Assembly (NCBI GenBank): GCA_028820935.1
Contig: JAPPHZ010000035.1
Coordinates: 50,747-114,746, forward strand
Direction: 5' to 3'
Length of the DNA stretch: 64,000 nt
Origin: a bacterium
Lineage (GTDB): Bacteria > Actinomycetota > Acidimicrobiia > Spongiisociales > Spongiisociaceae
Positions 10,028-59,708 of the stretch are shown here, piece after piece. A program made the position numbers and the translations under genes. The first letter of the stretch is position 1. Every line of letters starts with the position of its first letter. Under the pieces are notes generated by a model. It had not been told where the DNA came from and did not search any database. It was given only the letters and a program-made list of their open reading frames with translations.

Positions 10028-10117
10028 GGCTAGTAGTAGCTAGGTGCCGGTTGCTAGTTGCTCGTGACTAGTTGTATATAATGACTAGCAACTATAGACT
10101 AGCCGACTAGAGACTAA
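10028..10117. repeat. low-GC CTAG-rich spacer (copy A), between pafB start and pafA stop
   Basis: Sequence ggctagtagtagctaggtgccggTTGCTAgttgctcgtgactagttgTATATAATgactagcaactatagactagccgactagagactaa. It carries 9 CTAG tetramers in about 90 bp, inside a genome where CTAG is otherwise almost absent. Confidence 0.8.
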
Positions 10118-11475: not shown

Positions 11476-11580
11476 CCCAATAGGCTAATGACTAGTTTCT
11501 AGTCGCTAGTCAGTATTTACTAGTCAGTAGTTTCTAGGTACTAGCCGTTATCTTATAAGCTTAAACATAACTAGCAACTA
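11476..11580. repeat. low-GC CTAG-rich spacer (copy B), between pafA start and prcA stop
   Basis: Sequence ...aatgactagtttctagtcgctagtcagtatttactagtcagtagtttctaggtactagccgttatcttataagcttaaacataactagcaactagg. On the pafA-sense strand it has TTGCTA, a 16-nt spacer, then TAAGAT, which is promoter-like. Confidence 0.8.
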
Positions 11581-12255: not shown

Positions 12256-13043
12256 CGGACCACCTCCAAAGCCCGTTCGGCCGCCTCAGCCACTTCGGTC
12301 CGGTCGACTTCCTGGACGCCGTCGGTGGTGACCGTGAACACGTTGGGGTAGATCCCGCGACGCAGGTCGGGACCACCGGTCGCCAGGTCCTGGCCGGCCG
12401 CCGCCACCAGGGCGGCGATGCTGTGGTCGACGGCCTCGGTCCGGTCGGATCCGGGGTTGTACACCGTTCTCAGGTATGCCCTGGCTTCCCGGCTCCCCGA
12501 ACCGGCGGCGCCGAAGTCCCGCTCCTCGTAGCGCCCTCCGATCGCATCGAAGGTGAACACATGCCCGGTCCCGCTCTCGGGCTCGATCCCGCAGAACAGC
12601 GGCACGACTACGAACCCCTGCATGGCCATGGGTAGCTGGGAACGAACCATCCGGGCCAGGTAGGTGGCCTTGCCCTCCAGGCTGAGGCGCACCCCCTCGA
12701 GCTTCTCGTAGTGCTCCAACTCGGTCTGGAAGAGGCGGATCAGCTCGACTCCGAGCCCCGCCGTTCCCGAGATGGCCACGGCCGAGTAGGAATCCGCGGC
12801 GAACACCTTCTGGATGTGGCGATGAGCGATGTCGTATCCGGCGGTCGCCTGGCGATCCCCCACCATCACCACGCCGCCGCCGTAGCGGAGGGCCAGCACG
12901 GTGGTTGCGTCAGGCGGGCGGAAACCGGAGGGCGGGGCGTCCGGGCCCAGTTCCCATTGCGGAGCCAGGTCGAGTGACCTGATCAGTTCGGTGAAGCTGG
13001 CGCCGGGCAGGGGCGCCCCCAGAGGAAGCAGGCTGCCCGTCAC
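12252..13043 (-). CDS. prcB: 20S proteasome beta subunit (propeptide + Thr protease)
   Basis: ...TTVLALRYGGGVVMVGDRQATAG is the Ntn-hydrolase site. GTG start at 13043 in a GTGA overlap with the pup stop. The 339-aa upstream extension overlaps pup and was rejected. Confidence 0.9.
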   Translation of the reverse strand: MTGSLLPLGAPLPGASFTELIRSLDLAPQWELGPDAPPSGFRPPDATTVLALRYGGGVVMVGDRQATAGYDIAHRHIQKVFAADSYSAVAISGTAGLGVELIRLFQTELEHYEKLEGVRLSLEGKATYLARMVRSQLPMAMQGFVVVPLFCGIEPESGTGHVFTFDAIGGRYEERDFGAAGSGSREARAYLRTVYNPGSDRTEAVDHSIAALVAAAGQDLATGGPDLRRGIYPNVFTVTTDGVQEVDRTEVAEAAERALEVVR

Positions 13044-13228
13044 TCGCCGCCCTTTTGCACGTAGTTCTTCACGAACTCCTCGGCGTTCTCCTCGAGCACC
13101 GAATCTATCTCGTCCAGGAGTTCGTCGATCTTGTGTACCCCGCCTTGCGCGGCGACTTGCGGGGATGCCGTAACCGGCTCTGTTACTTCGCCGCGACGGC
13201 GCCGGATCCGCTCTCGTTCCTGTGCCAT
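13040..13228 (-). CDS. pup: prokaryotic ubiquitin-like protein Pup (C-terminal GGE)
   Basis: 62 aa with a good AGGAGG RBS. Sequence MAQERERIRRRRGEVTEPV...KIDELLDEIDSVLEENAEEFVKNYVQKGGE. Because the C-terminus is GGE rather than GGQ, no Dop deamidation is required. Confidence 0.9.
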   Translation of the reverse strand: MAQERERIRRRRGEVTEPVTASPQVAAQGGVHKIDELLDEIDSVLEENAEEFVKNYVQKGGE

Positions 13229-13362
13229 CTTCTCCTCCTAGGACCCCTGGCCGAACCCGGCCATGTTGCAATGCTTCACTTGTCGACCAATCATGCAGGC
13301 GCCGACGACGGGCTTCATAGCGTTCCCGAGCCGACCCTCACCCCTCCGGGAGGATAGGTCTT

Positions 13363-14841
13363 TCAGCACCCTCCGAGAGCGTCCAGGAGCGCGGCTGCGT
13401 CCGGGGCGGAGTCGAGCAGGTCTCCGACCAGAGACTCGTTACCCCGCAAGGGCTCCATCATAGGCACCCGCTTGAGGGAGTCCTCACCCACGTCGAACAC
13501 CAGCGAGTCCCAGTTGGCAGCCACGAGCGCGTCGGGATACTTCTTGACGCATCGTCCCCGGAAGTAGGCGCGGGTTTCGGGAGGTGGTTCCACGGTGGCC
13601 CGCCGCAATTCGGCCTCGTCGAAGATCCTCCGGAGCAGGCCCCGCTCCTCGAGCCGGTATGCCAAGCCCTTGCGGGGATCGGTGTCGTGGTACTGGAGCG
13701 CGGCCATGGCCAGCTTGGGATCGTGCCACTCCAGCTCGTCGCGCCGGCGGAAGGCGCTCAGCATTCGTAACTTGGCGGTCCAGTCGATCCGGTCCGAAGT
13801 GAGCATCGGGTCCCGTTCGAGATCGTTGAGGATGGAACTCCACTCGGTGATGACGTCCGCCCACACCGGTTCCGGATGGTTGGAGGCGGCATACTTCGAC
13901 AGCCACTCGAGGTAGCGGAACTGGAGCTCGAGAGCGGTGGCGGACGAGCCGTCGGCCATTGGCAGGGGCAGGCTGAGGGAGAGGTCGTGGCTCGATTGCC
14001 AGGTAGCCGATACCGGGTCGGCCAGGGCCAGATCGTCGGGCAGGGCACGGTCCTCGATGGCGGCCAGGAGCAGGGCGGTGGTCCCCAGCTTCACGAACGT
14101 CTGGACCTCCGACATGTTGGCGTCGCCGATGATGACGTGGAACCGCCGGTACCGGGCCGGATCGCCGTGGGGCTCGTCCCTGGTGTTGATGATGGGTCTC
14201 TTGAGCGTGGTCTCCAGGCCGACCTCCTCCTCGAAGAAGTCGGCTCGCTGGCTGATCTGGTAACGCACCGGTGGGCGGCCGTTCTCGGAACCGAGCTTTC
14301 CCGAACCGGTGAAGATCTGGCGGGTCACCAGCCACGTGGTGGCGTAGCGGATCAGGTCGGAGAAGGGCAACTCCCTATCCACCAGGTAGTTCTCGTGATG
14401 GCCGTAGGAGTTGCTCTTACCGTCGCTGTTGTTCTTGTGGACGTACATGTACTCGCCGGGCCGGAGGATCTGGTAGGCCTGGTCCACGGCGGTGGCCACC
14501 ACCCGCTCCCCCGCCTTGTCGTACAGGGCGGCCTGCCACGGGTCGACGCACTCGGGGCTGGAGTACTCGGGATGGGCGTGATCGACGTAGAAGCGGGCGC
14601 CGTTGGTCAGAACCACGTTGACCAGACCGGAATCGGGCTCCGCCAGGCCGTGATCCTCGTGACCCCCGCCCCGAGCGTCCCGGCCCGGGGTCTCCTCGTC
14701 GAAGGACCACCGCACCCGGACGCGGCCCCCCTGGTAGGAGTTGACCACCAGCGAGGAGGCGAGGGTAGGGTTGAAGTCCGGTTGGTTGCGAACCGTGATC
14801 CCGTATTCGGTCTCGGTCCCGATGACTTTGGGGGCTGCCAT
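13363..14841 (-). CDS. dop: depupylase/deamidase Dop
   Basis: 492 aa, MAAPKVIGTETEYGITV..., paralog of PafA, located between arc and pup. Confidence 0.95.
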   Translation of the reverse strand: MAAPKVIGTETEYGITVRNQPDFNPTLASSLVVNSYQGGRVRVRWSFDEETPGRDARGGGHEDHGLAEPDSGLVNVVLTNGARFYVDHAHPEYSSPECVDPWQAALYDKAGERVVATAVDQAYQILRPGEYMYVHKNNSDGKSNSYGHHENYLVDRELPFSDLIRYATTWLVTRQIFTGSGKLGSENGRPPVRYQISQRADFFEEEVGLETTLKRPIINTRDEPHGDPARYRRFHVIIGDANMSEVQTFVKLGTTALLLAAIEDRALPDDLALADPVSATWQSSHDLSLSLPLPMADGSSATALELQFRYLEWLSKYAASNHPEPVWADVITEWSSILNDLERDPMLTSDRIDWTAKLRMLSAFRRRDELEWHDPKLAMAALQYHDTDPRKGLAYRLEERGLLRRIFDEAELRRATVEPPPETRAYFRGRCVKKYPDALVAANWDSLVFDVGEDSLKRVPMMEPLRGNESLVGDLLDSAPDAAALLDALGGC

Positions 14842-19514: not shown

Positions 19515-20144
19515 TCAGTCGAGGCCCAGGCGGGCGATCCGGTCAAGTACCCCGGCCCGTTCCGCACCGATGGTGGTGCTGTCGCCATGGCCGGTGTGGA
19601 CGACCGTCTCGTCCGGGAGGACCAGCAGCATGTCGCGGATGCTCCGGAGGATGGTGGGCCGGTCACTGAAGCTCCGCCCGGTAGCGCCCGGGCCCCCTTT
19701 GAACAGGGTGTCACCCGAGAACATCAGCCCGCTCCTGTTGTCCAGGAAGCAGCACGAGCCCGGTGAGTGTCCGGGGGTGTGGATCACATCCAACTCGTGT
19801 CCGGCCACCCGCAGCGTGGCGCCGTGCGCCAGGTCACGGTCCGGGACCTCTTCGGCGTACACCATATCCCAAAGCATCCGGTCGTCGGGGTGGAGCAGGA
19901 TGGGAGCGTCCACGCGATCGCGCAGGGCGACCGCCGAGTTGATGTGGTCGTTGTGGCCGTGAGTTGCCACGATGGAGGACACCCGCCGTCCCGCCACCGC
20001 CTCCACGATCGGGGCGTGGTCATGGCCGGCGTCGATCACCAGCACCTCCCGATCGTCCCCGATCAGCCAGATGTTGTTGGTGACCTCCCACTCCCCGCCG
20101 TCGAGGCGGAACAGCCCGTCGGTCGTTACCAGTTCGATCGGCAT
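19515..20144 (-). CDS. MBL-fold metallo-hydrolase (hydroxyacylglutathione hydrolase-like)
   Basis: HxHxDH motif (ATHGHNDHI) and downstream His/Asp ligands. It neighbours the mycothiol-dependent formaldehyde dehydrogenase, as Rv2260/Rv2259 do. Confidence 0.85.
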   Translation of the reverse strand: MPIELVTTDGLFRLDGGEWEVTNNIWLIGDDREVLVIDAGHDHAPIVEAVAGRRVSSIVATHGHNDHINSAVALRDRVDAPILLHPDDRMLWDMVYAEEVPDRDLAHGATLRVAGHELDVIHTPGHSPGSCCFLDNRSGLMFSGDTLFKGGPGATGRSFSDRPTILRSIRDMLLVLPDETVVHTGHGDSTTIGAERAGVLDRIARLGLD

Positions 20145-20156
20145 GGTCGAGCCCTA

Positions 20157-20260
20157 AGAGGGTGCTGAAAAAGACGAGGATGGGTTGGCCCGCGACGGTC
20201 TCGACGTGGGCCGTTGTTGCCTATTGTGGGGCCAGCTGGACATTTTTCAGTACCCTCTCA
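20157..20260. repeat. inverted-repeat-bounded intergenic element, copy 1
   Basis: AAGAGGGTGCTGAAAAAG...(about 70 nt with internal hairpins)...TTTTTCAGTACCCTCT. The arms pair over 16 bp with one G.T. The right arm abuts the upstream gene's stop codon. Coordinates are approximate to within 1-2 nt. Confidence 0.7.
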
Positions 20261-21343
20261 GAACACCACGACCGAGCGAAGAACCTCGCCGCGCTCCATC
20301 TTGTGGAAGGCCTCCTCGACGTCTCCCACGCCGATCGTCTCGGAGACGAACCGGTCCAGGTCGAGACGGCCCTGGAGGTACAGGTCGATCAGCATGGGGA
20401 AGTCCTTGGAGGGAAGGCAGTCCCCGTACCAACTCGACTTCAGGGCGCCTCCGCGGCCGAACACCTCGATGAACGGCAACTCGAGGGTCATGTCAGGGGC
20501 GGGCACCCCCACGAGCACCACGGTGCCGGCTAGATCACGGGCCTTGAAGGCCTGCTGGTAGACGTGTGGTAGGCCGATCGCCTCGATGGCGACGTCGACC
20601 CCGTTGCCTCCGGTCAGAGCCTTGATGGCATGGACCGGGTCCTCGTCGTTGGAGTTGATGGTGTGGGTGGCCCCGAACTCTGTCGCCCATTCGAGCTTCC
20701 GGTCGTCGATGTCCACCCCGATGATGGTGGTGGCTCCGGCCAGCTTGGCCCCGGCGATGGCGCCGTCGCCCACGCCTCCGCAGCCGAACACCGCCACGCT
20801 GTCGCCCGCGCCCACGCCGCCGGTGTTGATCGCGGCGCCGATGCCGGCCATGACCCCGCAACCGAGCAGGCCGGCCGCCACCGGCGAGGCGGCGGGATCC
20901 ACCTTGGTGCATTGGCCGGCCGCCACGAGGGTGGCATCCGCGAACGCGCCGATGCCGAGGGCAGCCGACAACTCCGTGCCGTCGGCGAGGCTCATCTTCT
21001 GGGAAGCATTGTGGGTGCTGAAACAAATGTTGGGCCGACCCCTCAGGCACGACCGGCACTGGCCGCATACCGCCCGCCAGTTCAGGATGACGAAGTCACC
21101 GGGCTCCACCTCGGTCACCCCGGCACCCACTTCCTCGACCACCCCGGCCGCCTCGTGGCCGAGGAAGAAGGGGAAGTCGTTGTTGATGCCTCCTTCGCGG
21201 TAGTGGAGGTCCGTGTGGCAGACCCCGCAAGCCTGGATGCGGACCACGGCCTCACCGGGACCGGGATCCGGTATGACGATCTCCTCGAGGGTCACCGGCT
21301 CGCCGACTGCCTTCGATACCACACCCTGCACGGTCCGTGGCAT
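20258..21343 (-). CDS. mscR: class III Zn-dependent alcohol dehydrogenase / S-(hydroxymethyl)mycothiol dehydrogenase
   Basis: 361 aa. [12 protein letters not shown], catalytic and structural Zn Cys ligands (CGVCHTD ... CGQCRSC), and a Rossmann GCGGVG. Confidence 0.9.
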
Positions 21344-21412
21344 TTTCTTCTCCTCTGCTGACGTTATCGGGAAGACTAGTTGGATGAGTGTGTCCGGGAC
21401 CGGTCCGGACCT

Positions 21413-22966
21413 CTACGCCCCAGATGGTGTCCAGAGTTCGGTTCCGGGATGGAACTGGCTCCACGCGAACCAGAAGGACTCGTGGGCGGGTATCTCGACT
21501 CCGTCCGGTCCCAGGGCCCGCAGGCCGCCCCCGTCCTTGGTCACAACGATCCCGGAGTGCTCCACCGACCCTCCGCGGTCCAGCGTCGCATGGGCATCAA
21601 CGACGGAAAACGCCACCACGATCGGCTCCGTTCCTACCTCGGAAAGCACACCCAGTACCTTCTCGTGGACCGGCAGGCGGTCGTCCCAGTCCCCTATCGG
21701 GAAGATGGGACCGTGGTCGTCCCGACCCCGCAGGGGATCGTCCGGGTAGGACCGGCCTATCCCACCGTCCTCCGCCACGATGAGAGTGTGCGGATTGGCC
21801 GCCTTCCACTCGCCCCACCGCGAGGTCACCATCGTGGTCTGGGGCAACCGGACGCCCGCCTCCCGGAGAGGACCGCTCACGGCCTGGCCGGTGAAGGTGT
21901 CGAACATGGAACGCGTGTGGTACTCGTACATCATCTTGTTGGAACGTGTAAGGAGCCCGGACGTGCGGAGCTCGAACGTCCCGGCGTCGCCGAGCCGGTC
22001 GCGGACCGAGTCGGGCACCACGTCCGTGAAGTAGGCCTGGGCGGAGCCGCACAGGGTGCAGTACGGAATACCCAATCGCCTTCCCCCGATGGTGATGTTG
22101 ACCATCTCGTGAACTTCCATGATGTTCTTGGGGAACGCCACCGCCTCCCCGTTGACGGTCACCGCGAACACGTATGCCTCGTCGGGGTAGTAGTCGCCCT
22201 CGGAGGCGGGTACCAGTAGGGGATCGTTGAGCGCCGGGATGCAGCCCCTGGGGCACGGCAGGTGCGTCGTGTTGAGTGGGCGATCGTCGATCAGCACCCC
22301 GCCCCACGTGACGTGACGCCAATCGATGAGTGAGTCCTCGTCGGCGAAGAAGGGCGCCCATCCCAACTCGACCAAGGTGTACAACCCGCCCTTCCACGCG
22401 CCGAACCCTGGTGGCGCCGGGGTGTCCCATGCCATCAACTGGTTGGTGGCGTCGCGCCACGGGTTCGGGCCGAGGTCCACGCCCGTCAGTTGGGTGAACG
22501 CGTACTGGAGGCCCGAAGCCTCGGGATGGATGAAGCGCATGAGATCCGCGATGACCCAGGCGACGCGCAGATCACCGGACCGGCCGAGGCGGACGATGGC
22601 ATCGGTGTCCAGCCCGGTGGTCAACGAGTCGAGTACCGCTTGGAGATCGGCTTCTACGTCCACCGCCACGGCGTCCTCTGCTGTAGTGGCCGCCGGTTCA
22701 TCCGTTGATTCGGCCGGCAGCGCCGTGGTTGCGGCGGAGACCTGCTCGGGCGCCGCCTCCGGAGCCTCGCCGGTCGGTTGGTCACGGCCGGACGCGGTCG
22801 TGGATGCCGTCAGGCCGGTCGTGCTGGTGGCCTCGACAGGCTCGGCGACCTCGACCGTTTCGGCCTGCCGGCTCGGCGGTCCCGCGGATCGGATGGCGAC
22901 CAGCAGGGCGAGCCCCGCCAGTAACACCAGACCGATCAGAAGCGCCCGGCGGCGTCCGGGATTCAT
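21413..22966 (-). CDS. DUF3179 domain-containing secreted/membrane-anchored protein
   Basis: N-terminal TM/signal, an Ala/Thr/Glu-rich linker, then a conserved core with ...GIPYCTLCGSAQAYF..., which recalls the DUF3179 YCPLCGSG motif. Confidence 0.65.
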   Translation of the reverse strand: MNPGRRRALLIGLVLLAGLALLVAIRSAGPPSRQAETVEVAEPVEATSTTGLTASTTASGRDQPTGEAPEAAPEQVSAATTALPAESTDEPAATTAEDAVAVDVEADLQAVLDSLTTGLDTDAIVRLGRSGDLRVAWVIADLMRFIHPEASGLQYAFTQLTGVDLGPNPWRDATNQLMAWDTPAPPGFGAWKGGLYTLVELGWAPFFADEDSLIDWRHVTWGGVLIDDRPLNTTHLPCPRGCIPALNDPLLVPASEGDYYPDEAYVFAVTVNGEAVAFPKNIMEVHEMVNITIGGRRLGIPYCTLCGSAQAYFTDVVPDSVRDRLGDAGTFELRTSGLLTRSNKMMYEYHTRSMFDTFTGQAVSGPLREAGVRLPQTTMVTSRWGEWKAANPHTLIVAEDGGIGRSYPDDPLRGRDDHGPIFPIGDWDDRLPVHEKVLGVLSEVGTEPIVVAFSVVDAHATLDRGGSVEHSGIVVTKDGGGLRALGPDGVEIPAHESFWFAWSQFHPGTELWTPSGA

Positions 22967-23043
22967 GCCGCGGTCTCGCCCGGAGGTCCGGTCATCAACT
23001 CGTGCGCCGGCCCGCTTCCGATCGCAGGCCGAGGATCATGAGT

Positions 23044-23283
23044 TCAGCGGCCGAGAAGGATCGCCAGGCTGACGGTCGTGGCCGCGAACAGGACCGCCAC
23101 GAAGACGGTCATGCGATCCAGGTTCCGCTCGGCGAGCGTCGATCCGCCCATCCCGCCTGCCTGCATCCCGCCGCCGAACATGTCGCCAAGCCCACCCTTG
23201 CCGGCATGAAGCAGGATCAGGAAGACCAGGGCAACCGCCACGATGAGATGAAGGACGGTGATGATGGCGATCGCAACAGTCAT
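23044..23283 (-). CDS. secG: preprotein translocase subunit SecG
   Basis: 79 aa, two TM helices, glycine-rich loop LHAGKGGLGDMFGGG. Confidence 0.85.
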   Translation of the reverse strand: MTVAIAIITVLHLIVAVALVFLILLHAGKGGLGDMFGGGMQAGGMGGSTLAERNLDRMTVFVAVLFAATTVSLAILLGR

Positions 23284-23320
23284 TACTTAGTTCCTAGTTG
23301 TTAGTTTCTAGTTTCGAGTT
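23284..23320. repeat. CTAG-rich spacer (copy C); also encodes the C-terminal tail of the four-helix-bundle gene
   Basis: cttagttcctagttgttagtttctagtttcgagtt; the 4HB ORF ends ...TTNSKLETNN* inside it. Confidence 0.75.
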
Positions 23321-23599
23321 GGTGGTGGGCGTCAAGCGAAGCGCCCGCTTGAGCCCGCTGAGCATCCTACCAACCTCGTCGGCACAAACCAGAACATCCT
23401 GAACGTGCTCGTTGTCGGCCATGCCCAGCCGGCTAGCCAAGATCAGAAACGTCTCTGTCTCTGCCAGCGAGCCGCTCGCGATTCCCAGAAACTGGAGGAA
23501 CTCCCTGGCGGAGAGCCGATAGACCATCTCGGCCAACTCGAGGGATTTCTGCCAGACCTCCAAATCCTGATAGCCGCCCGTGATGGTTACTATAGCCAT
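23294..23599 (-). CDS. four-helix-bundle protein (23S rRNA intervening-sequence protein family, TIGR02436-like)
   Basis: YQDLEVWQKSLELAEMVYRL...FLQFLGIASGSLAETETFLILASRLG is the hallmark. Its GC (about 55%) is clearly below that of its neighbours. Confidence 0.8.
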   Translation of the reverse strand: MAIVTITGGYQDLEVWQKSLELAEMVYRLSAREFLQFLGIASGSLAETETFLILASRLGMADNEHVQDVLVCADEVGRMLSGLKRALRLTPTTNSKLETNN

Positions 23600-23661
23600 C
23601 AGTATGTTCTAAGCTATATTGACTAGCAACTAGCAACTAGCAACTAGCAACTAGCAACTAG
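23600..23661. repeat. CTAG-rich spacer (copy D) with a perfect (CAACTAG)x5 tandem
   Basis: tgttctaagctatattgactag(caactag)x5 cc. The last TAG is the gpmA stop codon. TAG occurs every 7 nt on both strands, so all six frames are terminated. Confidence 0.85.
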
Positions 23662-24407
23662 CCGGCCTGTGCGGCAACTGCGGCAGCAGCGGCCTCCGCT
23701 ACTCCCGGATCGCCTAGGTACCGGTCTCCGGCATACTCCAGGTCGTCGTCCAGTTCCACGACCAGGGGGATCCCGGTGGGGATGTTCAGGCGGGTGATCT
23801 CCTCTTCGCCGATCCCTTTCAAGTACTTGAGCAGGGCGCGGATGCTGTTGCCGTGGGCCACGACCAGGACGCGGCGTCCCGCGGACAGGTCGGGCAGGAT
23901 CCCCGCCTCCCAGTAGGGAACCGCGCGGGCGACCACATCGGCCAGGCATTCGGAGACAGGGAGTTCCCCGGTGGCCACGTCCCGGTACCTCCTGTCGAAG
24001 CGGGGATGGCGCGGATCGTCCCTCTCCAGGGCCGGGGGCGGCACCCCATAGCTCCGCCTCCATTGGAAGACCTGATCCGCGCCATGCAGGGCGGCGGTCT
24101 CCTTCTTGTTCAGACCCTGCAAGCCGCCGTAGTGACGCTCGTTGAGCCGCCAACTCCGCCTGACGGGCAACCAGTGCAGGTCCATACGGTCGAGGGCGAT
24201 GTTGGCGGTGTTGATGGCCCGTCGCAGCAGCGAGGTGTGGACGATGTCGAAGGACAGGCCTTCCTCCGCCATCAGCACGCCGGCGGACACCGCTTCCTCC
24301 TCCCCGCCAACGGTGAGCGGTACGTCGGTCCAGCCCGAGAAGCGATTCTCGAGATTCCAGGTGCTCTCACCATGTCGAACCAGGACCAGCTCATTCGGTC
24401 GGCTCAT
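23658..24407 (-). CDS. gpmA: 2,3-bisphosphoglycerate-dependent phosphoglycerate mutase
   Basis: [25 protein letters not shown] (the RHGE phosphohistidine motif). Confidence 0.9.
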
Positions 24408-24425
24408 GCGCGTCCGCTCCCTACT

Positions 24426-24534
24426 AAGAGGGTGCTGAAGAAGCCCTCACAAGGGGTTCGGGCGCTGTCTCATACCTCAGAACAGGTGACTTGCTGCCGG
24501 CGAACCCCGCGAGATTCATCTTCAGTACCCTCTC
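24426..24534. repeat. inverted-repeat-bounded intergenic element, copy 2
   Basis: AAGAGGGTGCTGAAGAAG...(about 75 nt containing an 8-bp GGGGTTCG/CGAACCCC stem)...CTTCAGTACCCTCT. The arm stem carries a compensatory A-T to G-C change relative to copy 1. The right arm overlaps the tpiA stop. Confidence 0.7.
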
Positions 24535-25309
24535 AAGTCCAGTACCTCACGCAGGCCGCCAGCGTCCCCGGGTCGAGAGATGCCCCCCCGATCAGGCCGC
24601 CGTCTATGTCCCGCTTGGCCATGAGCGCGGCCACGTTACCCGGGTTGATCGACCCGCCGTAGATGATCCGCACCTGATCGGCTGCATCCCCGTGCCGTGA
24701 TCGAATGCGGCTCCTTATGTGCGAGATCATCTCTTGGGCAACGGATGGCCGGGCGTGCCGGCCGGTGCCGATGGCCCATACCGGTTCGTACGCAACCACC
24801 AGCCGCGCTACCTGATCGGACGGTATCCTGGCGAGGGCGCCCGAGACCTGCCGGCCTACCGTCTCCTCGGCGCAACCGGCTTCACGTTCGTCCAGGGTCT
24901 CCCCTACCGCAACGATCGGCACGACTCCCTCCGACAGCGCCACCCGAGCCTTCCTGTTGACCATACGGTCGTCCTCGCCGAAGTCCCGGCGGCGCTCCGA
25001 ATGGCCCACTATGACGTAGCTGACGGCCAGCTTGGCCAGCATGCGGACCGATACCTCGCCGGTGTGGGCGCCTTCCTTTGCCCAATGCACGTTCTGCGCC
25101 ACGATGCGGATCGGTAGGTCGTCCATCTGGACCACCGTCTGGACCGAGCGGAGCGAGGTGAAGGAAGGCGCAACCCCGACGTCGACCCGGTCGTAGTCGG
25201 CCGGACCGAGCTGGTAGCTCAGAGCCTGTACCCACTGCATCGCCTCGAAGTAGGTCCCGTGCATCTTCCAGTTGGCCACCATCAGGGGCTTGCGCGCTAC
25301 CGGGCCCAT
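24533..25309 (-). CDS. tpiA: triose-phosphate isomerase
   Basis: ...PLMVANWKMHGT...VAYEPVWAIGTG... Start at the internal M (25309); the upstream extension overlaps pgk. Confidence 0.9.
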   Translation of the reverse strand: MGPVARKPLMVANWKMHGTYFEAMQWVQALSYQLGPADYDRVDVGVAPSFTSLRSVQTVVQMDDLPIRIVAQNVHWAKEGAHTGEVSVRMLAKLAVSYVIVGHSERRRDFGEDDRMVNRKARVALSEGVVPIVAVGETLDEREAGCAEETVGRQVSGALARIPSDQVARLVVAYEPVWAIGTGRHARPSVAQEMISHIRSRIRSRHGDAADQVRIIYGGSINPGNVAALMAKRDIDGGLIGGASLDPGTLAACVRYWT

Positions 25310-26481
25310 CGTTCCAGGCCCTTCACCCCCGGCAGGGTCTTGCCTTCCAGCAACTCGAGCCCGGCCCCGCCGCCTGTCGATAGGTGATCGAGGCCGGCCT
25401 GAAACCCGAGCATTCGCAGTGCGGCCACGGAATCGCCGCCGCCGGCTACCCGGAAGGCACTGGATCGGGCCATCGCGTCCGCCACCGTCGCAGTCCCCGA
25501 CCGGAACGCCTCCCACTCGAACACCCCCATGGGGCCGTTCCAGAAAACCGATCCCGACCCGCCGATGACCTCGGCGAACTGTTCGGCGGTGGCGGGGCCG
25601 ATGTCAAGACCCCAGGTGCCCTCCTCGATGGAACTCATACCCACCGCGGTGGCGCCGGCCTCCTCAGCGAACCGATCGGCGGTGACTATGTCCGAGGGAA
25701 GGACCAGCCTGTCTGCCTCCGGGGTGCTCAGGAGCTCGTTCAGGGAGTCGAAATAGTCCGGCTCGACCAGCGAGTTGCCGACCTCGTAGCCCTCGACGGC
25801 CAGGAAGCTGAAGCACATGCCGCCACCGACGAGCATGGCGTCCACCTTGGGTAGCAGCGCCCGGATCAGCGGAAGCTTGTCCGAGATCTTGGCGCCCCCC
25901 AGCACCACCGTGAACGGTTGGGGCGGGTTGTCCATGAGGGTGCTGAACACGGCAAGCTCGCGTTCTAGCAGCGGCCCTGCCGCCGATCTGAGCAGGGAGG
26001 ACACCCCGGTGGTGGAGGCATGGGCCCGGTGGGCCGAACCGAACGCGTCCAGCACGAAGACGTCGGCCCACTCGGCCAACTCCGACGCGTAATCGGGGTC
26101 ATTGGTGGTCTCGCCGGGATGGAAACGGGTATTCTCGAGCAGCACCACGTCGCCCGGACGGGCCTCTCCGATCAGGCGGCGGGCGTCCTCGCCGACCGAG
26201 TCGGAGGCGTGGACAACCGGGAATCCACCCAGCTCGGACAGTGCCACGGCCACGGGGGCCATCCGCATCCCGTCCACCACGCGGCCCCGGGGCCGTCCCA
26301 GATGGCTGCATAGGATGACCACCGCGCCGGCGTCTCTTAGCCGGCCTATGGCGGGGAGCGCCGCCCGGAGACGAAAGTCATCAGCCACCCGCCCGTCTCG
26401 CAGGGGAACGTTCAGGTCGGACCGGAGCAGCACACGGCGCTCGGACACCGGAAGATCCGCGACGGTCAAGAAACTCTCCAC
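25297..26481 (-). CDS. pgk: phosphoglycerate kinase
   Basis: 394 aa. ...RSDLNVPL... N-terminus and the ...GGGDS... C-terminal motif. Confidence 0.9.
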   Translation of the reverse strand: MESFLTVADLPVSERRVLLRSDLNVPLRDGRVADDFRLRAALPAIGRLRDAGAVVILCSHLGRPRGRVVDGMRMAPVAVALSELGGFPVVHASDSVGEDARRLIGEARPGDVVLLENTRFHPGETTNDPDYASELAEWADVFVLDAFGSAHRAHASTTGVSSLLRSAAGPLLERELAVFSTLMDNPPQPFTVVLGGAKISDKLPLIRALLPKVDAMLVGGGMCFSFLAVEGYEVGNSLVEPDYFDSLNELLSTPEADRLVLPSDIVTADRFAEEAGATAVGMSSIEEGTWGLDIGPATAEQFAEVIGGSGSVFWNGPMGVFEWEAFRSGTATVADAMARSSAFRVAGGGDSVAALRMLGFQAGLDHLSTGGGAGLELLEGKTLPGVKGLERWAR

Positions 26482-46130: not shown

Positions 46131-46214
46131 TACCGGGAATGGGACTCGAACCCATACGCCCTTGCGGGCACCGGATTTTGAGTCCGGCGCGTCTACCAAT
46201 TCCGCCATCCCGGC
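46131..46214 (-). tRNA. tRNA-Leu (anticodon CAA)
   Basis: Reverse complement GCCGGGATGGCGGAATTGGTAGACGCGCCGGACTCAAAATCCGG...GGTTCGAGTCCCATTCCCGGTA. Long variable arm. Confidence 0.85.
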
Positions 46215-46365
46215 GAGCGGGCGCCGATCTTACCCCGACGCGCCACCTTGCAGGAGGGTATCCCCATCGCCGTGGGGTTCGCTCGCTAGCCTGCAACTCC
46301 CGGACCGGGTGAGTTCGCCTACCCGCGAACCCCGGAGAAACCGCTCTCGAGCACCGTCGCAGGTC

Positions 46366-48150
46366 ATGGATCAATCTCGCATACGCAACGTCGCGATCAT
46401 CGCTCACATCGACCACGGCAAGTCGACACTGGCCGATCGATTCCTGGAGATCTGCGGGGCCGTAGAAGCACGCCGGATGCGCGCCCAGTACCTCGACAAC
46501 ATGGAACTGGAGCGCGAGCGCGGTATCACCATCAAACTCCAGAGCGTCCGCCTGGAGTACGGACCCTGGCGGATCAACCTGATCGACACGCCCGGCCATG
46601 TCGACTTCGGCTACGAGGTGTCCCGCTCGCTGGCGGCATGCGAGGGGGTGATCCTCCTGGTGGACGCCGCCCAGGGCATCGAGGCCCAGACCCTGGCCAA
46701 CTGCACGCTGGCCCTTGAGCACGATCTGGCCGTGGTGCCGGTTCTCAACAAGGTGGACCTACCCGCCGCCGATCCCGACCGGGTGGCCGAGGAGATCGAA
46801 CAGGTCTTGGGCATCGCGGCCGAGGAGGTGCTCGCGGTCTCGGCCAAGACCGGCGAGGGTGTTACCGGGCTGCTCGACGCGGTTTGCCGGCGCGTACCGC
46901 CCCCGGAGGACGATCCCGATGCCGAGCTGGCCGCCCTGGTGTTCGACTCGCATTTCGACAACTACCGGGGCGTGATCAGCTCGATCAGGGTCGTGCGGGG
47001 CACGCTCCGCTCCGGCTCGCGTGTGCATTTCATGCAGACCGGCGCTGTCTACAACGTCCAGGAGATCGGGGTACGCACCCCGTCAGCCGCTCCCGTGGAG
47101 CAGCTGGGTCCGGGGGAGGTGGGATACCTCATATCGGGGGTCAAGAACACTGCGGAGGCCCGCCCCGGCGAGACCGTGACCGACGCCGCCCGTCCCGCCT
47201 CCACCCCCCTACCCGGATATCGTGAACCGAAGCCCATGGTGTTCTGCGGGCTCTATCCCCTTGATGGCGACGAGTACCCCGAACTGCGGGATGCCCTCGA
47301 CCGGCTGCGCCTCAACGACTCCAGCTTCACCTACGAGCCGGAGACCTCCACCGCTCTCGGTTTCGGCTACCGGTGCGGCTTCCTGGGCCTGTTGCACATG
47401 GAGATCATCACCCAGCGCCTCGCGCGCGAGTTCGCCCTTGACATCATCACCACCAAGCCGTCGGTGGAGTACCGGGTGCGGACCGCGGCCGGGAACGAGG
47501 TACCCGTCGACAACCCCGCCAAGATGCCCCCGGCCGGCGAGGTGGTGGCCATCGCGGAGCCGATACTGGCCGCGAGCATCATCAGCCCGGCCCGCTACAC
47601 GGGACGCCTAATGGACCTCTGCCAGGGCCGCCGGGGACGCATCAAGGGCATGGAGTACCTGTCTCCCGAGCGGGTCGAACTGCGTTACCGTGTCCCGCTC
47701 GCCGAGGTGGTGACCGACTTCTACGACCAGCTGAAGAGCCGGACCAGGGGCTACGCCAGCCTGGACTACGAGCCCGACGGGTACGAGGACGCCGACCTGG
47801 TGAAGGTGGACATCCTGCTGCATCACGACCCGGTCGACGCCTTCAGCGCCATCGTCCACCGGGAAGCCTCCTATCCCTACGGGCGCCGGATGACCGAGAA
47901 GCTCAGGGAGCTGATCCCCCGCCAGCAGTTCGACGTGCCGATCCAGGCCGCCATCGGCAGCAGGATCATCGCCCGCGAGACCGTGAAGGCCTACCGCAAG
48001 GACGTCACTGCCAAACTCTACGGGGGCGACGTGACCCGCAAGCGCAAGCTGCTACAGCGCCAGAAGGCCGGCAAGCGGAGGATGAAGGCGATCGGAAGCG
48101 TCGATGTCCCACCCGAGGCCTTCATCTCGGTGATGAGGATGACTTCCTAG
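46366..48150 (+). CDS. lepA: elongation factor 4 (LepA)
   Basis: [28 protein letters not shown] (G1 motif) and LepA-specific C-terminus. The upstream 68 in-frame codons overlap the tRNA and were rejected. Confidence 0.95.
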
Positions 48151-48212
48151 TTGCTAGTTCCTAGTTGCTAGTCATAATCAATAAACGCCGGTGAGTATTG
48201 ACTAAACCCTAG
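48146..48212. repeat. CTAG-rich spacer (copy E) between convergent lepA and trpA
   Basis: cctagttgctagttcctagttgctagtcataatcaataaacgccggtgagtattgactaaaccctagg; the first TAG is the lepA stop. Confidence 0.8.
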
Positions 48213-50213: not shown

Positions 50214-50824
50214 GGATTCTCCTCCACCCGTTTGGCGTTCCTCACGAAGCTGCGGATCCTGGAGGGATCCTTCACCCCGGGCGCAGACTCTAGGCCGGAC
50301 GAGGCGTCGACGCCCCATGGACGATGACGGGCCACCGCGTCCGCGACGTTCGAGGGGTTCAGACCGCCCGCCAGCACGTACCGGCTGCCCGGAGGCGGGA
50401 GCCACTCCGGAGCGACCCCGCGGCCCGTACCGCCCAGGTCGTTCGGCGAGTACCCGTCGAGGAGGGCGGTGCAGCCGGGCGGGATGGTCCCCAGGTCCAC
50501 GGGGCCCCGCACGCGGTGCGGCCGGAGCACGAAGGCCCCGGCCGTGGCCGCCACGCGGGCGGCCTCGGGCGCGTGGTCACCGTAGGGCTGCACACCGGCG
50601 GCGCCCACCCGGTCCAGCAGTTCCACGAGTTCGTGGGGACGGGCGTCGAGGGTAAGGATCACCGCGGGCACACGGGACATGGAGGCCAGGCGGGCGGCGT
50701 CGTCCACCTCCAGGTACCGGGGCGTCCCTGGGATGAGGTTCAGTCCCAGCGCGTCGGCACCGGCGTCGGCCGCCGCCTCCACGTCACCGGCGGTGCGCAT
50801 ACCGCAGACCTTCACCCAGGTCAT
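50210..50824 (-). CDS. trpF: phosphoribosylanthranilate isomerase
   Basis: [29 protein letters not shown] is the TrpF N-terminus. Confidence 0.8.
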
Positions 50825-58049: not shown

Positions 58050-58088
58050 TCGATAGTTGCAACTAACAACTACCAACTACCAACTAGA
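58045..58088. repeat. CTAG-rich spacer (copy F) with a CAACTAN 7-mer tandem, between convergent amidohydrolase and ccdA
   Basis: tctagtcgatagttgcaactaacaactaccaactaccaactag. It spans both stop codons. Confidence 0.8.
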
Positions 58089-58836
58089 TCGCGGCCAGGT
58101 CCTCGAGGCCGAGCCGGATCATCCATTCGCTGATCAGGCTCGACAGGTCGGTGATGCGGCCGGTGATGAACAGCCAACCGAAGACGATCATCAGGAGACC
58201 GGACAGGACGTTGATGGTCCGCAGATGCCGCTGGAGGAGCTTGATGCCCGAGTAGAGCTTGGTCACACCGATTCCGGCGGCGATGAACGGCAAACCCATA
58301 CCCATCGAGAACACGAACAGCAGGAGCATCCCCCTGGCGACCGTCTCCTGGGTGGCGGCCTGGGTGAGGATGGCCGCCAGCACCGGACCGATACACGGGG
58401 TCCAGCCGAAACCGAAGGCCATGCCCATCACCAGCGGCGCCCAGCCGCCCAGCTGCGAAGGACGCACGTGGAGCCGCCGCTCCCGGTAGAGGAAGGCCAG
58501 GCGGGGCGACGTGCTGAGCGCCATCAGCACGATGACCAGCCCGAACACGGCGATCAGCCAGCCCGCCGCGGTGGTGATGACGCCCTTGTTGCGGGCGAGC
58601 AGGCCGGCCACCGAAGTAGCCCCCGCTCCGAGGGCCACGAAGACGATGGTGAACCCGATCACGAACATCACCGTGACCCGGAGCATCCGGCCGGTGGAGG
58701 CCTTCCCCTGCTGCAGATCGGCCACCGAGTAGCCCGACATGAGCCCCAGGTATCCGGGCAGTAGAGGCAGCACGCAGGGCGAAACGAAGGAGAGAGCCCC
58801 GAAGACGAGTGCGCTCACGTATCCGGCAGGATCCAT
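58084..58836 (-). CDS. ccdA: cytochrome c biogenesis protein CcdA (DsbD-like thiol:disulfide transporter)
   Basis: Six TM helices. Conserved Cys in ...SFVSPCVLPLLPGYL... and ...GWTPCIGPVL... Confidence 0.85.
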   Translation of the reverse strand: MDPAGYVSALVFGALSFVSPCVLPLLPGYLGLMSGYSVADLQQGKASTGRMLRVTVMFVIGFTIVFVALGAGATSVAGLLARNKGVITTAAGWLIAVFGLVIVLMALSTSPRLAFLYRERRLHVRPSQLGGWAPLVMGMAFGFGWTPCIGPVLAAILTQAATQETVARGMLLLFVFSMGMGLPFIAAGIGVTKLYSGIKLLQRHLRTINVLSGLLMIVFGWLFITGRITDLSSLISEWMIRLGLEDLAAI

Positions 58837-58937
58837 AGTTGCTAGATCCTAGTTGTCAGTTGCTAGTTGCTAGTTCTATGTTGTTAGTTCCTAGTTGTGC
58901 TAGTACCTAGAGACTAGAGACTATCAACTAGAAACTA
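58837..58937. repeat. CTAG-rich spacer (copy G), between ccdA start and fabI stop
   Basis: agttgctagatcctagttgtcagttgctagttgctagttctatgttgttagttcctagttgtgctagtacctagagactagagactatcaactagaaactag. It carries 13 CTAG tetramers in about 100 bp. Confidence 0.8.
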
Positions 58938-59708
58938 GGTAGCGATGGCGTGGAATCCGGCGTCCACATGGATGACCTCGCCGGTCACCTTGGTGGCGAA
59001 GTCCGAGAGCATCACACAGATCATGTTGGCCACCGGGGTGGGATCGGACGTGTCCCAGGTGAGGGGGGCTCGCTCGCTCCAGACATGCTGGAACCGTTCG
59101 AACCCGGGGATGCCCTTGGCCGCCATGGTCGACAGCGGGCCCGCCGACACGGCGTTCACCCGAACGTTGTGGCGCCCCAGGTCGCGGGCCAGGTAGCGGG
59201 TCACCGAGGCCAGGGCGGCCTTGCACACTCCCATCCAGTCGTAGGCGGGCCAGGCCTGGGTGCTGTTGTCGAAGTCGAGGGTCACCAGGGATCCGCCCCC
59301 TGCTTCCTCGAACAGCGGCAACAGGCCCACGGCCAGGGTCTTGTAGGAGAACGCCGAGGTGGTGAAAGCAAGGGAGGCGCTCTCCACGGGCGTGGTCAGG
59401 AAGTTGCCGCCCAGCGCGTCCTCGGGAGCGAAGGCTATGGCGTGCAAGGCCCCGTCCAGGCGCCCCCAGCGTCGCCCCAGCTCGTCGACAAGCTGCTGCA
59501 TGTGAACCGGATCGTTGATGTCGAGCTCGAACACGTCGGGCGGATCCGGCAGGCGGCGGGCTGCCCGTTGGGTGAGACGCATCCCCCGCCCGAATCCGGT
59601 CAGGACTATCTCGGCGCCCTGTTCCTGGGCCACCTTGGCGCTGTGCCAGGCGATCGAACCGTGCGTGAGGACGCCGGTTACCAGCACCCGCTTACCTGTC
59701 AGCAGCAT
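58935..59708 (-). CDS. fabI: enoyl-[acyl-carrier-protein] reductase (NADH) FabI/InhA
   Basis: MLLTGKRVLVTGV... and Tyr/Lys catalytic spacing typical of FabI/InhA. 257 aa. Confidence 0.9.
   Translation of the reverse strand: MLLTGKRVLVTGVLTHGSIAWHSAKVAQEQGAEIVLTGFGRGMRLTQRAARRLPDPPDVFELDINDPVHMQQLVDELGRRWGRLDGALHAIAFAPEDALGGNFLTTPVESASLAFTTSAFSYKTLAVGLLPLFEEAGGGSLVTLDFDNSTQAWPAYDWMGVCKAALASVTRYLARDLGRHNVRVNAVSAGPLSTMAAKGIPGFERFQHVWSERAPLTWDTSDPTPVANMICVMLSDFATKVTGEVIHVDAGFHAIAT

Follow-up and report, generated by a model that had tools for sequence, protein, structure and literature searches.

Two short elements with near-identical inverted termini lie between housekeeping genes on contig JAPPHZ010000035.1 of a Spongiisociaceae genome (Acidimicrobiia; assembly GCA_028820935.1), one between mscR and the gene of a metallo-beta-lactamase (MBL)-fold hydrolase, the other between tpiA and gpmA. 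They raise the question of whether such hairpin-forming sequences are structured RNAs, recombination sites or mobile DNA. The window analysed here, by which we mean the whole stretch of 64,000 nt (positions 50,747 to 114,746 of the contig), is 100% identical to ENA ERZ23495468 scaffold_769 (L202). A first-pass annotation had described a family with compensatory changes in its stem and had compared it with integron attC sites, with bacterial interspersed mosaic elements (BIMEs) and repetitive extragenic palindromes (REPs), or with a structured antisense small RNA, rather than with miniature inverted-repeat transposable elements (MITEs). We arrive at a different assignment. With a probability of roughly 0.88, these elements are non-coding MITEs of ~100–110 bp which derive from insertion sequences (ISs) of the IS5 family and whose terminal inverted repeats (~16 bp) are those of a single clade in that family. 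They are multi-copy in many genomes, have IS5-type ends and short direct duplications centred on TA, and their orthologous sites are found empty in relatives.

Both full copies with inverted termini are present in the window as had been annotated (Table 1). Measured from inverted repeat to inverted repeat, copy 1 (TA:AGAGGGTGCTGAAAAAG...CATTTTTCAGTACCCTCT:CA; here and below a colon marks an element boundary) is 102 bp and copy 2 (TA:AGAGGGTGCTGAAGAAG...CATCTTCAGTACCCTCT:CA) is 107 bp long, with shared termini of 16–18 nt. For copy 1 the strand given is set by the central CCAGGTCAGAG-like block, and it agrees with the sense strand of the genes. The right arm of each copy starts at the stop codon of the upstream gene, an observation which we can confirm: the TGA of mscR (minus strand, 20258–20260) is composed of the last base of copy 1 (20258) and the flanking CA dinucleotide, the TGA of tpiA (minus strand, 24533–24535) of element base 24533 and its flanking CA, and both stop codons stand at offset -4 from AGGGT. 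Equally correct was the solo arm overlapping the dop stop codon: CTTTCAGCACCCTCC is located at 13360–13374, the TGA within this arm (13363–13365) is the stop codon of dop, and the final Dop residues (GGC, followed by the stop) are encoded by the truncated copy. The count of two copies and one solo end holds for all three of these, and has to be extended by one decayed copy. The latter has as neighbours a tRNA gene (46131–46214, minus) and a GTPase gene, read by eye as lepA, which appears to start at ~46365 (plus). In total, the 64-kb window contains two intact copies and two relics.

At the level of the motif, GAGGGTRCTGAA has six exact occurrences in the window; when one mismatch is allowed there are 7 matches compared to 0.42 expected, and none of 100 shuffles has as many. 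The sixth exact 12-mer, GAGGGTGCTGAA at 25936–25947 (plus), is located inside the pgk coding sequence, has no element features around it and is probably a chance match. Three comparable matches to the 11-mer core in apparent coding sequence (L096, L113 and L115) were seen in 0.96 Mb of related DNA.

The family is much larger than the window suggests. A scan of one-genome-per-species contigs with AGGGTRCTGAA-N60-90-TTCAGYACCCT gave at least 120 loci, compared to a rough estimate of ~8 by chance. The description as a multi-copy intergenic family bounded by inverted repeats stands. The counts of family members given below refer to 123 copies among the matches listed, in which both 11-mer arms were forced to be exact. 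Even so, several metagenome-assembled genomes (MAGs) have 5–15 of the listed loci each. The hosts are mostly Acidimicrobiia MAGs, with names including Candidatus Spongiisocius, Spongiisociaceae and Poriferisodalis, others being Ilumatobacteraceae; the remaining ones belong to Bryobacteraceae/Terriglobia (Acidobacteriota), soil Actinomycetota and Chloroflexota/Dehalococcoidia, together with a few singletons. The matched span AGGGT...ACCCT is 88–112 nt long in the 123 copies, which is 4 nt shorter than the length from inverted repeat to inverted repeat used for the window copies.

After the arms had been stripped, the 123 interiors were clustered, which yielded at least 13 clusters with more than one copy. 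Copy 1 falls into a subfamily of 51 members (subfamily A), its interior being 77–82% identical to copies in other genomes, and copy 2 into one of 11 members (subfamily B). Hidden Markov models (HMMs) built without the window copies recover both of them, subfamily A at 20154–20260 (E=1e-24) and subfamily B at 24424–24532 (E=2.3e-18). Each copy does fold into a hairpin, as had been reported, but the interiors are not unrelated and variable, since they belong to these two conserved subfamilies. The impression of conserved ends around a variable interior arose because one member of each of two subfamilies had been seen; the two window copies differ inside because their two subfamilies have in common only those ends which a transposase would recognise.

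Some loci tell about the history of individual insertions. In an Acidimicrobiia MAG (isolate D_3_bin.12; L069, 7179–7400) two full copies of the same subfamily are arranged head to tail with a single CCTAGG junction, and at another locus (L028, 4386–4520) an extra arm is nested next to a full copy; both arrangements suggest that one element inserted into the flank of another. Furthermore, pairs of loci from different MAGs (L008 and L040; L009 and L086) share not only near-identical copies but also the 12 nt that flank them on either side. Some insertions thus appear to be older than the split of those MAG lineages, and others, such as the pair in the window, are polymorphic between close strains.

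The ends of the elements lead to a defined group of transposons. A typical element reads CTAG:[G/C]AGGGTGCTGAAAAAG ... CTTTTTCAGCACCCT[C/G]:CTAG, with [G/C]AGGGTGCTGAAAAAG as the terminal inverted repeat at both ends. Conservation extends 3–4 nt past the searched 11-mer, the next three positions being A in 99–105 of the 123 copies and the fourth mostly G. A 45-nt query from the consensus end matched the left end of ISAtc5, an element of 1260 bp from an Acidithiobacillus caldus megaplasmid with an annotated IS5-like transposase. Its left end is GTAG:GAGGCTGCTGAAAAAG (in a longer reading GTAG:GAGGCTGCTGAAAAAGTCGG) and its right end CCGCACCCTC:GTAG; the transposase has at least 8000 matches at E<=1e-20, which are listed with PF05598, PF01609 and PF13751. 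Two complete elements of 1262 bp (L208 and L209) have the form CTAG:CAGGCTGCTGAAA[A/C]AC ... GTATTTCAGCAGCCTG, starting with CAGG[C]TGCTGAAA, followed on the right by CTAG in L208 and by CTGG in L209. In a further one (L205) both ends read CAGGATGCTGAAAAAC and the flanks are CTAG. When the left ends of the ISs are aligned with the MITE ends, TAG-N-AGG-N-TGCTGAAA is invariant. ISAtc5 and its relatives thus share with the MITEs the end [G/C]AGG[N]TGCTGAAA[A]A[G/C] and (C/G)TAG flanks, and 13–15 of the 16 end positions match. Because the ends of ISAtc5, L205, L208 and L209 all agree in this way, we regard the MITE ends as those of one IS5-family clade. The ISs differ from the window elements by their length of 1260 bp and a transposase with PF05598 (DUF772), PF01609 (DDE_Tnp_1) and PF13751, whereas the window elements are ~105 bp long and non-coding. 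The IS5 of E. coli, which reads CTAA:GGAAGGTGCGAACAAG ... :CTAA, is similar in its 4-bp YTAR duplication (CTAA in the copy that was read) and in its end GGAAGGTGCGAACAAG, which resembles GAGGGTGCTGAAAAAG. Substitutions and one indel separate these ends, however, and within the family this IS is more distant.

MITEs of this kind have already been described in other bacteria. BrickBuilt of Porphyromonas gingivalis and the pair of ATR repeat and ISNme1 in Neisseria are IS5-family-derived bacterial MITEs (PMC4596501). Like the elements studied here they are short and non-coding and have no transposase remnant. Their inverted repeats are identical to, or within 1–2 nt of, those of resident IS5-family elements. 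Their end sequences and hosts are different, and BrickBuilt has a minisatellite and irregular target duplications (PMC4596501). We found no paper which describes the present family, nor any that deals with MITEs of Acidimicrobiia or with the named candidate genera; the 11-mer occurs in the literature only within unrelated primer lists. Of similar size are also the Correia elements of Neisseria and the RUP elements of Streptococcus pneumoniae (~100–150 bp), whose ends are inverted, whose insertion duplicates TA, and which are in many cases transcribed as hairpins together with the neighbouring genes. For Correia elements, promoter, integration host factor (IHF)-binding and RNase III effects are documented, none of which was found for the present elements. 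The end sequences of both differ from those in the window.

Evidence for insertion comes from a close relative. A contig from the same sample as the window (L203) codes for an identical MscR protein, its DNA identity being 95% around mscR and 88% around gpmA, and lacks both copy 1 and copy 2. The first empty site reads GTCTTT TAG GGCGGGCTCGACC ATG, in which TAG is the mscR stop codon, and the corresponding filled site in the window reads GTGTTC TG:AGAGGGTAC...GCACCCTCT:TA GGGCTCGACC ATG. Compared to the empty site, the filled one has gained the element and a second TA at the point where mscR ended with TAG. Together with the first base of the element, the upstream one of the two TAs would have given TAA, where TGA is found now. 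On the gene-sense strand the left TA of copy 1 is the TA of TAGGGCTCGACC, which also trails the stop codon in the empty allele. This comparison was made by direct reading of the sequences, since automatic alignment (MAFFT and a pairwise program) put the long gap in the wrong place. Copy 1 is likewise missing from L122 (89% MscR identity) and from ~25 other metagenomic orthologues, where the spacer between mscR and the MBL-fold hydrolase gene is 0–15 nt long. The tpiA–gpmA spacer of L203 comprises 24 nt and contains no copy 2.

The flanks across the family point in the same direction. CTAG is found in 54 of 121 copies per side, and in 30 copies the two sides carry one and the same palindromic 4-mer (CTAG in each case). 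Where identical flanks are not palindromic, they are direct only in 11 cases (for instance TTAG..TTAG, five times, but also CTAA..CTAA, CGAG..CGAG and CCAG..CCAG) and inverted only in 1. Where the ends read GCAGGGT, the direct repeats measure 4 bp; where they read GGAGGGT, as in the window copies with the L203 empty site, a 2-bp duplication of TA fits better.

A duplicated TA, with a preference for CTAG, is typical of IS630/Tc1-type transposases, which could have moved the MITEs in place of an IS5-family enzyme. The duplication that best fits the window copies and the L203 empty site is of this type, and the GGAGGGT-end copies vary at the outer flank base without being mirrored at the other end, as is expected for a 2-bp duplication within NTAN. 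Nevertheless, we consider such a mobiliser improbable. The terminal 16 nt agree at 13–15 positions with IS5-family ends that belong to DUF772/DDE_Tnp_1 transposases (IS630-type ends were not compared), the GCAGGGT-end copies have 4-bp direct repeats, and some subgroups of the IS5 family duplicate 2–4 bp as well. As known from ISfinder, target duplications in the IS5 family range from 2 to 9 bp depending on the subgroup, therefore a length of 2 or of 4 bp is no argument against an IS5-family origin.

Several observations weigh against the assignment to this IS5 clade. The search pattern fixed both 11-mers as exact, thus their invariance is no independent evidence. Even the best IS ends differ from the MITE ends at 1–3 of 16 positions and come from other phyla: the sampled ISs stem from Acidithiobacillus and from unassigned metagenome contigs, and not from Acidimicrobiia. 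None of the four IS ends sampled contains the central block shared by several subfamilies, matches to it being no better there than in shuffles. The second empty site in L203 is no simple YTAR site, and its ancestral target is not cleanly readable in a region of 88% identity. The duplication looks like 4 bp in some copies and like 2 bp in others, and for this reason an IS630-type mobiliser stays a minor rival. Finally, no full-length IS with the exact MITE ends was detected in the window or in 1.35 Mb of loci that had been fetched, and the transposases of IS5 and ISAtc5, used as tblastn queries, met with no IS5-type transposase gene there. A scan of viral contigs for the autonomous partner was negative too, and the solo arms, inspected as possible ends of such a partner, turned out to be mutated or truncated MITEs or chance matches in coding sequence. 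The existence of an autonomous partner in this lineage is what we infer.

An origin as IS5-derived MITEs suggests the following scenario. A DDE transposase from a full-length IS of the same clade, encoded elsewhere, would bind both ends, excise the element and paste it into a YTAR site, mostly CTAG, with duplication of 2–4 bp. In a genome of 67% G+C, where CTAG and TA are strongly avoided, TAG stop codons may be among the few harmless YTAR sites, which would explain why many copies are positioned exactly on stop codons and at operon junctions. The stop codon of the upstream gene could then be supplied by the flank (TAG, TAA or TGA) or, inside the arm, by the TGA of GCTGAA. Once inserted, a copy would presumably be co-transcribed with the operon and is predicted to form a strong hairpin in the mRNA; we found nothing that points to a use of this hairpin.

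The counts agree with such a target choice. CTAG occurs 66 times in the window compared to 194 times expected, a three-fold under-representation, and TTAG, CTAA and TTAA are at least eight-fold under-represented. Facing genes were called as open frames with high third-position G+C, a crude criterion which makes the following numbers approximate: in 40 of 68 flanks the stop codon of the facing gene is located exactly in the flank (32 TAG, 4 TAA, 4 TGA), and in a further 9 of 68 it is the arm-internal TGA (GCTGAA), as in dop. A YTAR target holds TAR on both strands. The three coincidences with stop codons in the window could thus be traced to target choice and to the tolerance of insertions at gene ends.

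Many of the CTAG sites in the window belong to another repeat. Seven tandem arrays with a 7-nt unit (CAACTAG or CTAGTTG, in either orientation), apparently all intergenic, are located at 10030–10116, 11492–11580, 23287–23320, 23622–23662, 48144–48172, 58060–58086 and 58836–58938 and hold ~40 of the 66 sites; their period of 7 nt places TAG in all three frames of both strands. At the gpmA stop codon there is a perfect array of six copies (ACTAGCA), and a similar array is found upstream of secG in L203. The 7-nt unit contains the target of the MITEs and of IS5, yet none of the arrays carries an insertion.

Is there, on the other hand, reason to regard the elements as RNA? They might be structured RNAs with a stem under selection for pairing: antisense small RNAs, or cis-acting hairpins by which the operon mRNA is attenuated, stabilised or processed. 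From either strand each copy is predicted to form a long hairpin of -48 to -60 kcal/mol (z-scores -3.6 to -5.6), copies lie inside operons, and a G.U pair which is possible on the plus strand only is kept in most subfamily-A copies. The central block is common to several subfamilies, and when it is used to orient the elements there is a mild excess of one orientation at co-directional gene pairs (14 versus 5). The same count yields 8 copies between convergent and 4 between divergent genes, in addition to those in the opposite orientation. Rfam 15 at gathering score reports three tRNAs only in the window, and between 20000 and 24700 there is nothing at E<=1, hence the elements match no known RNA family. 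For the 51 subfamily-A copies RNAalifold returns the terminal stem only, with a covariation term of -0.03, and on the consensus minimum-free-energy structure of this subfamily 86.2% of cells are paired, compared to 85.6% after shuffling of the partners. Within the internal helix TTGGCCCG/CGGGCCAA, 2 double changes were counted next to many breaks. At arm position 12, the pair which had been called compensatory, 9 one-sided stand against 2 two-sided changes in subfamilies A and B; other whole subfamilies are fixed for G/G or C/C at this position, which reflects founder differences. The claim of compensatory covariation is therefore not upheld. No promoter-like or terminator-like site overlapping either copy was found by a scan, and the sister strain lacks both copies while its genes are intact. 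Altogether, a structured RNA seems very unlikely to us. The antisense small RNA in particular is not supported, in view of the missing Rfam match at E<=1, the occurrence in both orientations relative to the genes and the presence or absence among close strains.

Hardly credible is an origin as a pair of inverted REPs (REPIN/BIME-like) spread via single-strand hairpins by a RAYT (TnpA-REP) tyrosine transposase, as the ~100-nt size, the long imperfect palindrome, the intergenic location in high copy number and the (C/G)TAG flank, which recalls the GTAG head of REPs, would allow, whereas flank repeats are direct and not inverted (11 versus 1), the ends equal those of DDE-type IS5 elements, and filled and empty site differ by the element and a duplicated TA. 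The former preference for attC or BIME/REP over MITEs is thus reversed by the IS5-family inverted repeats, the target duplications and the empty sites. Regarding integron attC sites, the copies are situated between housekeeping genes (mscR–MBL, tpiA–gpmA, dop–pup) whose order is kept in element-free relatives, there is no cassette array, and at the boundaries ...CAGCACCCTC[C/T]:TAG and AGGGTGCTGAA direct reading, with no dedicated pattern scan, revealed no attC core GTTRRRY.

Three further candidate functions were considered and rejected. For a promoter or terminator carried by the element, the scan gave no candidate; the reverse complement of the central block resembles a -35 hexamer only weakly. 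Mycobacterial interspersed repeats (MIRUs) contain a small open reading frame (ORF) which is translationally coupled to the flanking genes, and are arranged in tandem units, whereas the window elements are single units. The only ORF of the window copies is a frame with ATG just past the first arm and TAG just past the second one (29 and 31 codons, ending in SAPS before the stop), but of the 51 copies in subfamily A only 3 keep such an ATG...TAG frame, and of the 11 in subfamily B a single one does, the lengths varying by indels. Copy 2 and a few others have in their arm the sequence of a hammerhead-like core (CUGANGA), whereas most copies read CUGAAAA.

What remains to be considered is the central block itself. 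CCAGGTCAGAG, often followed by CATCG, is located at a distance of 46–48 nt from one end. Subfamilies A and B contain it, as do at least four further ones that are otherwise unalignable in their interiors. Counting CCAGGTCAGAG at <=3 mismatches, it is present in 6 of 26 clusters compared to 1.26 expected from shuffles, for a motif that was chosen after seeing the data. Furthermore, the palindromes of most subfamilies extend further than the ~16-nt repeats in the sampled ISs, which may reflect either their mode of origin or selection. Together with the operon-internal positions at stop codons, the shared block and the extended arms could mean that a selected module is present. It could be a sub-terminal binding site for a host factor or for the transposase, or a signal for mRNA processing or stability which uncouples neighbouring genes. 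That some MITE lineages have been co-opted and carry a module under selection appears unlikely.

For genome annotation, an IS5-derived MITE origin means that these ~105-nt hairpins should be masked as mobile-element repeats and not be listed as small RNAs, attenuators or attC sites. The insertions alter gene ends, Dop ending with three element-encoded residues, and stretch operon junctions from ~10–25 nt to ~115–125 nt, which could affect translational coupling. They can serve as presence/absence markers among closely related strains, and many of the carrier MAGs have names that suggest an association with sponges. The MITE subfamilies in several phyla would all go back to one IS5 clade. Specialists for mobile elements will find nothing surprising here.

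All genes in the region of the two copies, among them mscR, the MBL-fold hydrolase gene, gpmA and dop, are on the minus strand. Table 1 lists them together with the elements.

Table 1. Elements, their flanks and neighbouring genes in the window
Feature	Position	Strand	Remarks
Putative MITE, copy 1, subfamily A	20157..20258	minus	between mscR stop and MBL-fold hydrolase gene start; inverted repeat to inverted repeat
Left flank TA of copy 1	20155..20156		one copy of the duplicated target
Right flank CA of copy 1	20259..20260		degenerate second copy of the TA duplication
Putative MITE, copy 2, subfamily B	24427..24533	minus	between tpiA stop and gpmA start
Left flank TA of copy 2	24425..24426		pattern as in copy 1 and family consensus
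Right flank CA of copy 2	24534..24535		degenerate TA
Truncated one-end copy	13351..13376	minus	GGAGGGTGCTGAAAGAC on gene-sense strand; nhmmer matches HMM positions 3-28 only
Decayed subfamily-B copy, both arms eroded	46274..46356	minus	nhmmer E=3.5e-08, HMM positions 8-89; found by HMM only
pup	13040-13228		
dop	13363-14841	minus	
MBL-fold hydrolase gene	19515-20144	minus	
mscR	20258-21343	minus	
gpmA	23658-24407	minus	
tpiA	24533-25516	minus	ORF as listed, with upstream GTG start

Between gpmA and secG the window contains, at 23294–23599 (minus), a gene for a four-helix-bundle protein of 101 aa (TIGR02436; Pfam 23S_rRNA_IVP). In L203 (872–950) the interval between gpmA and secG is ~160 nt shorter and no gene for a four-helix-bundle protein was called there, which constitutes a second presence/absence difference between the two strains.

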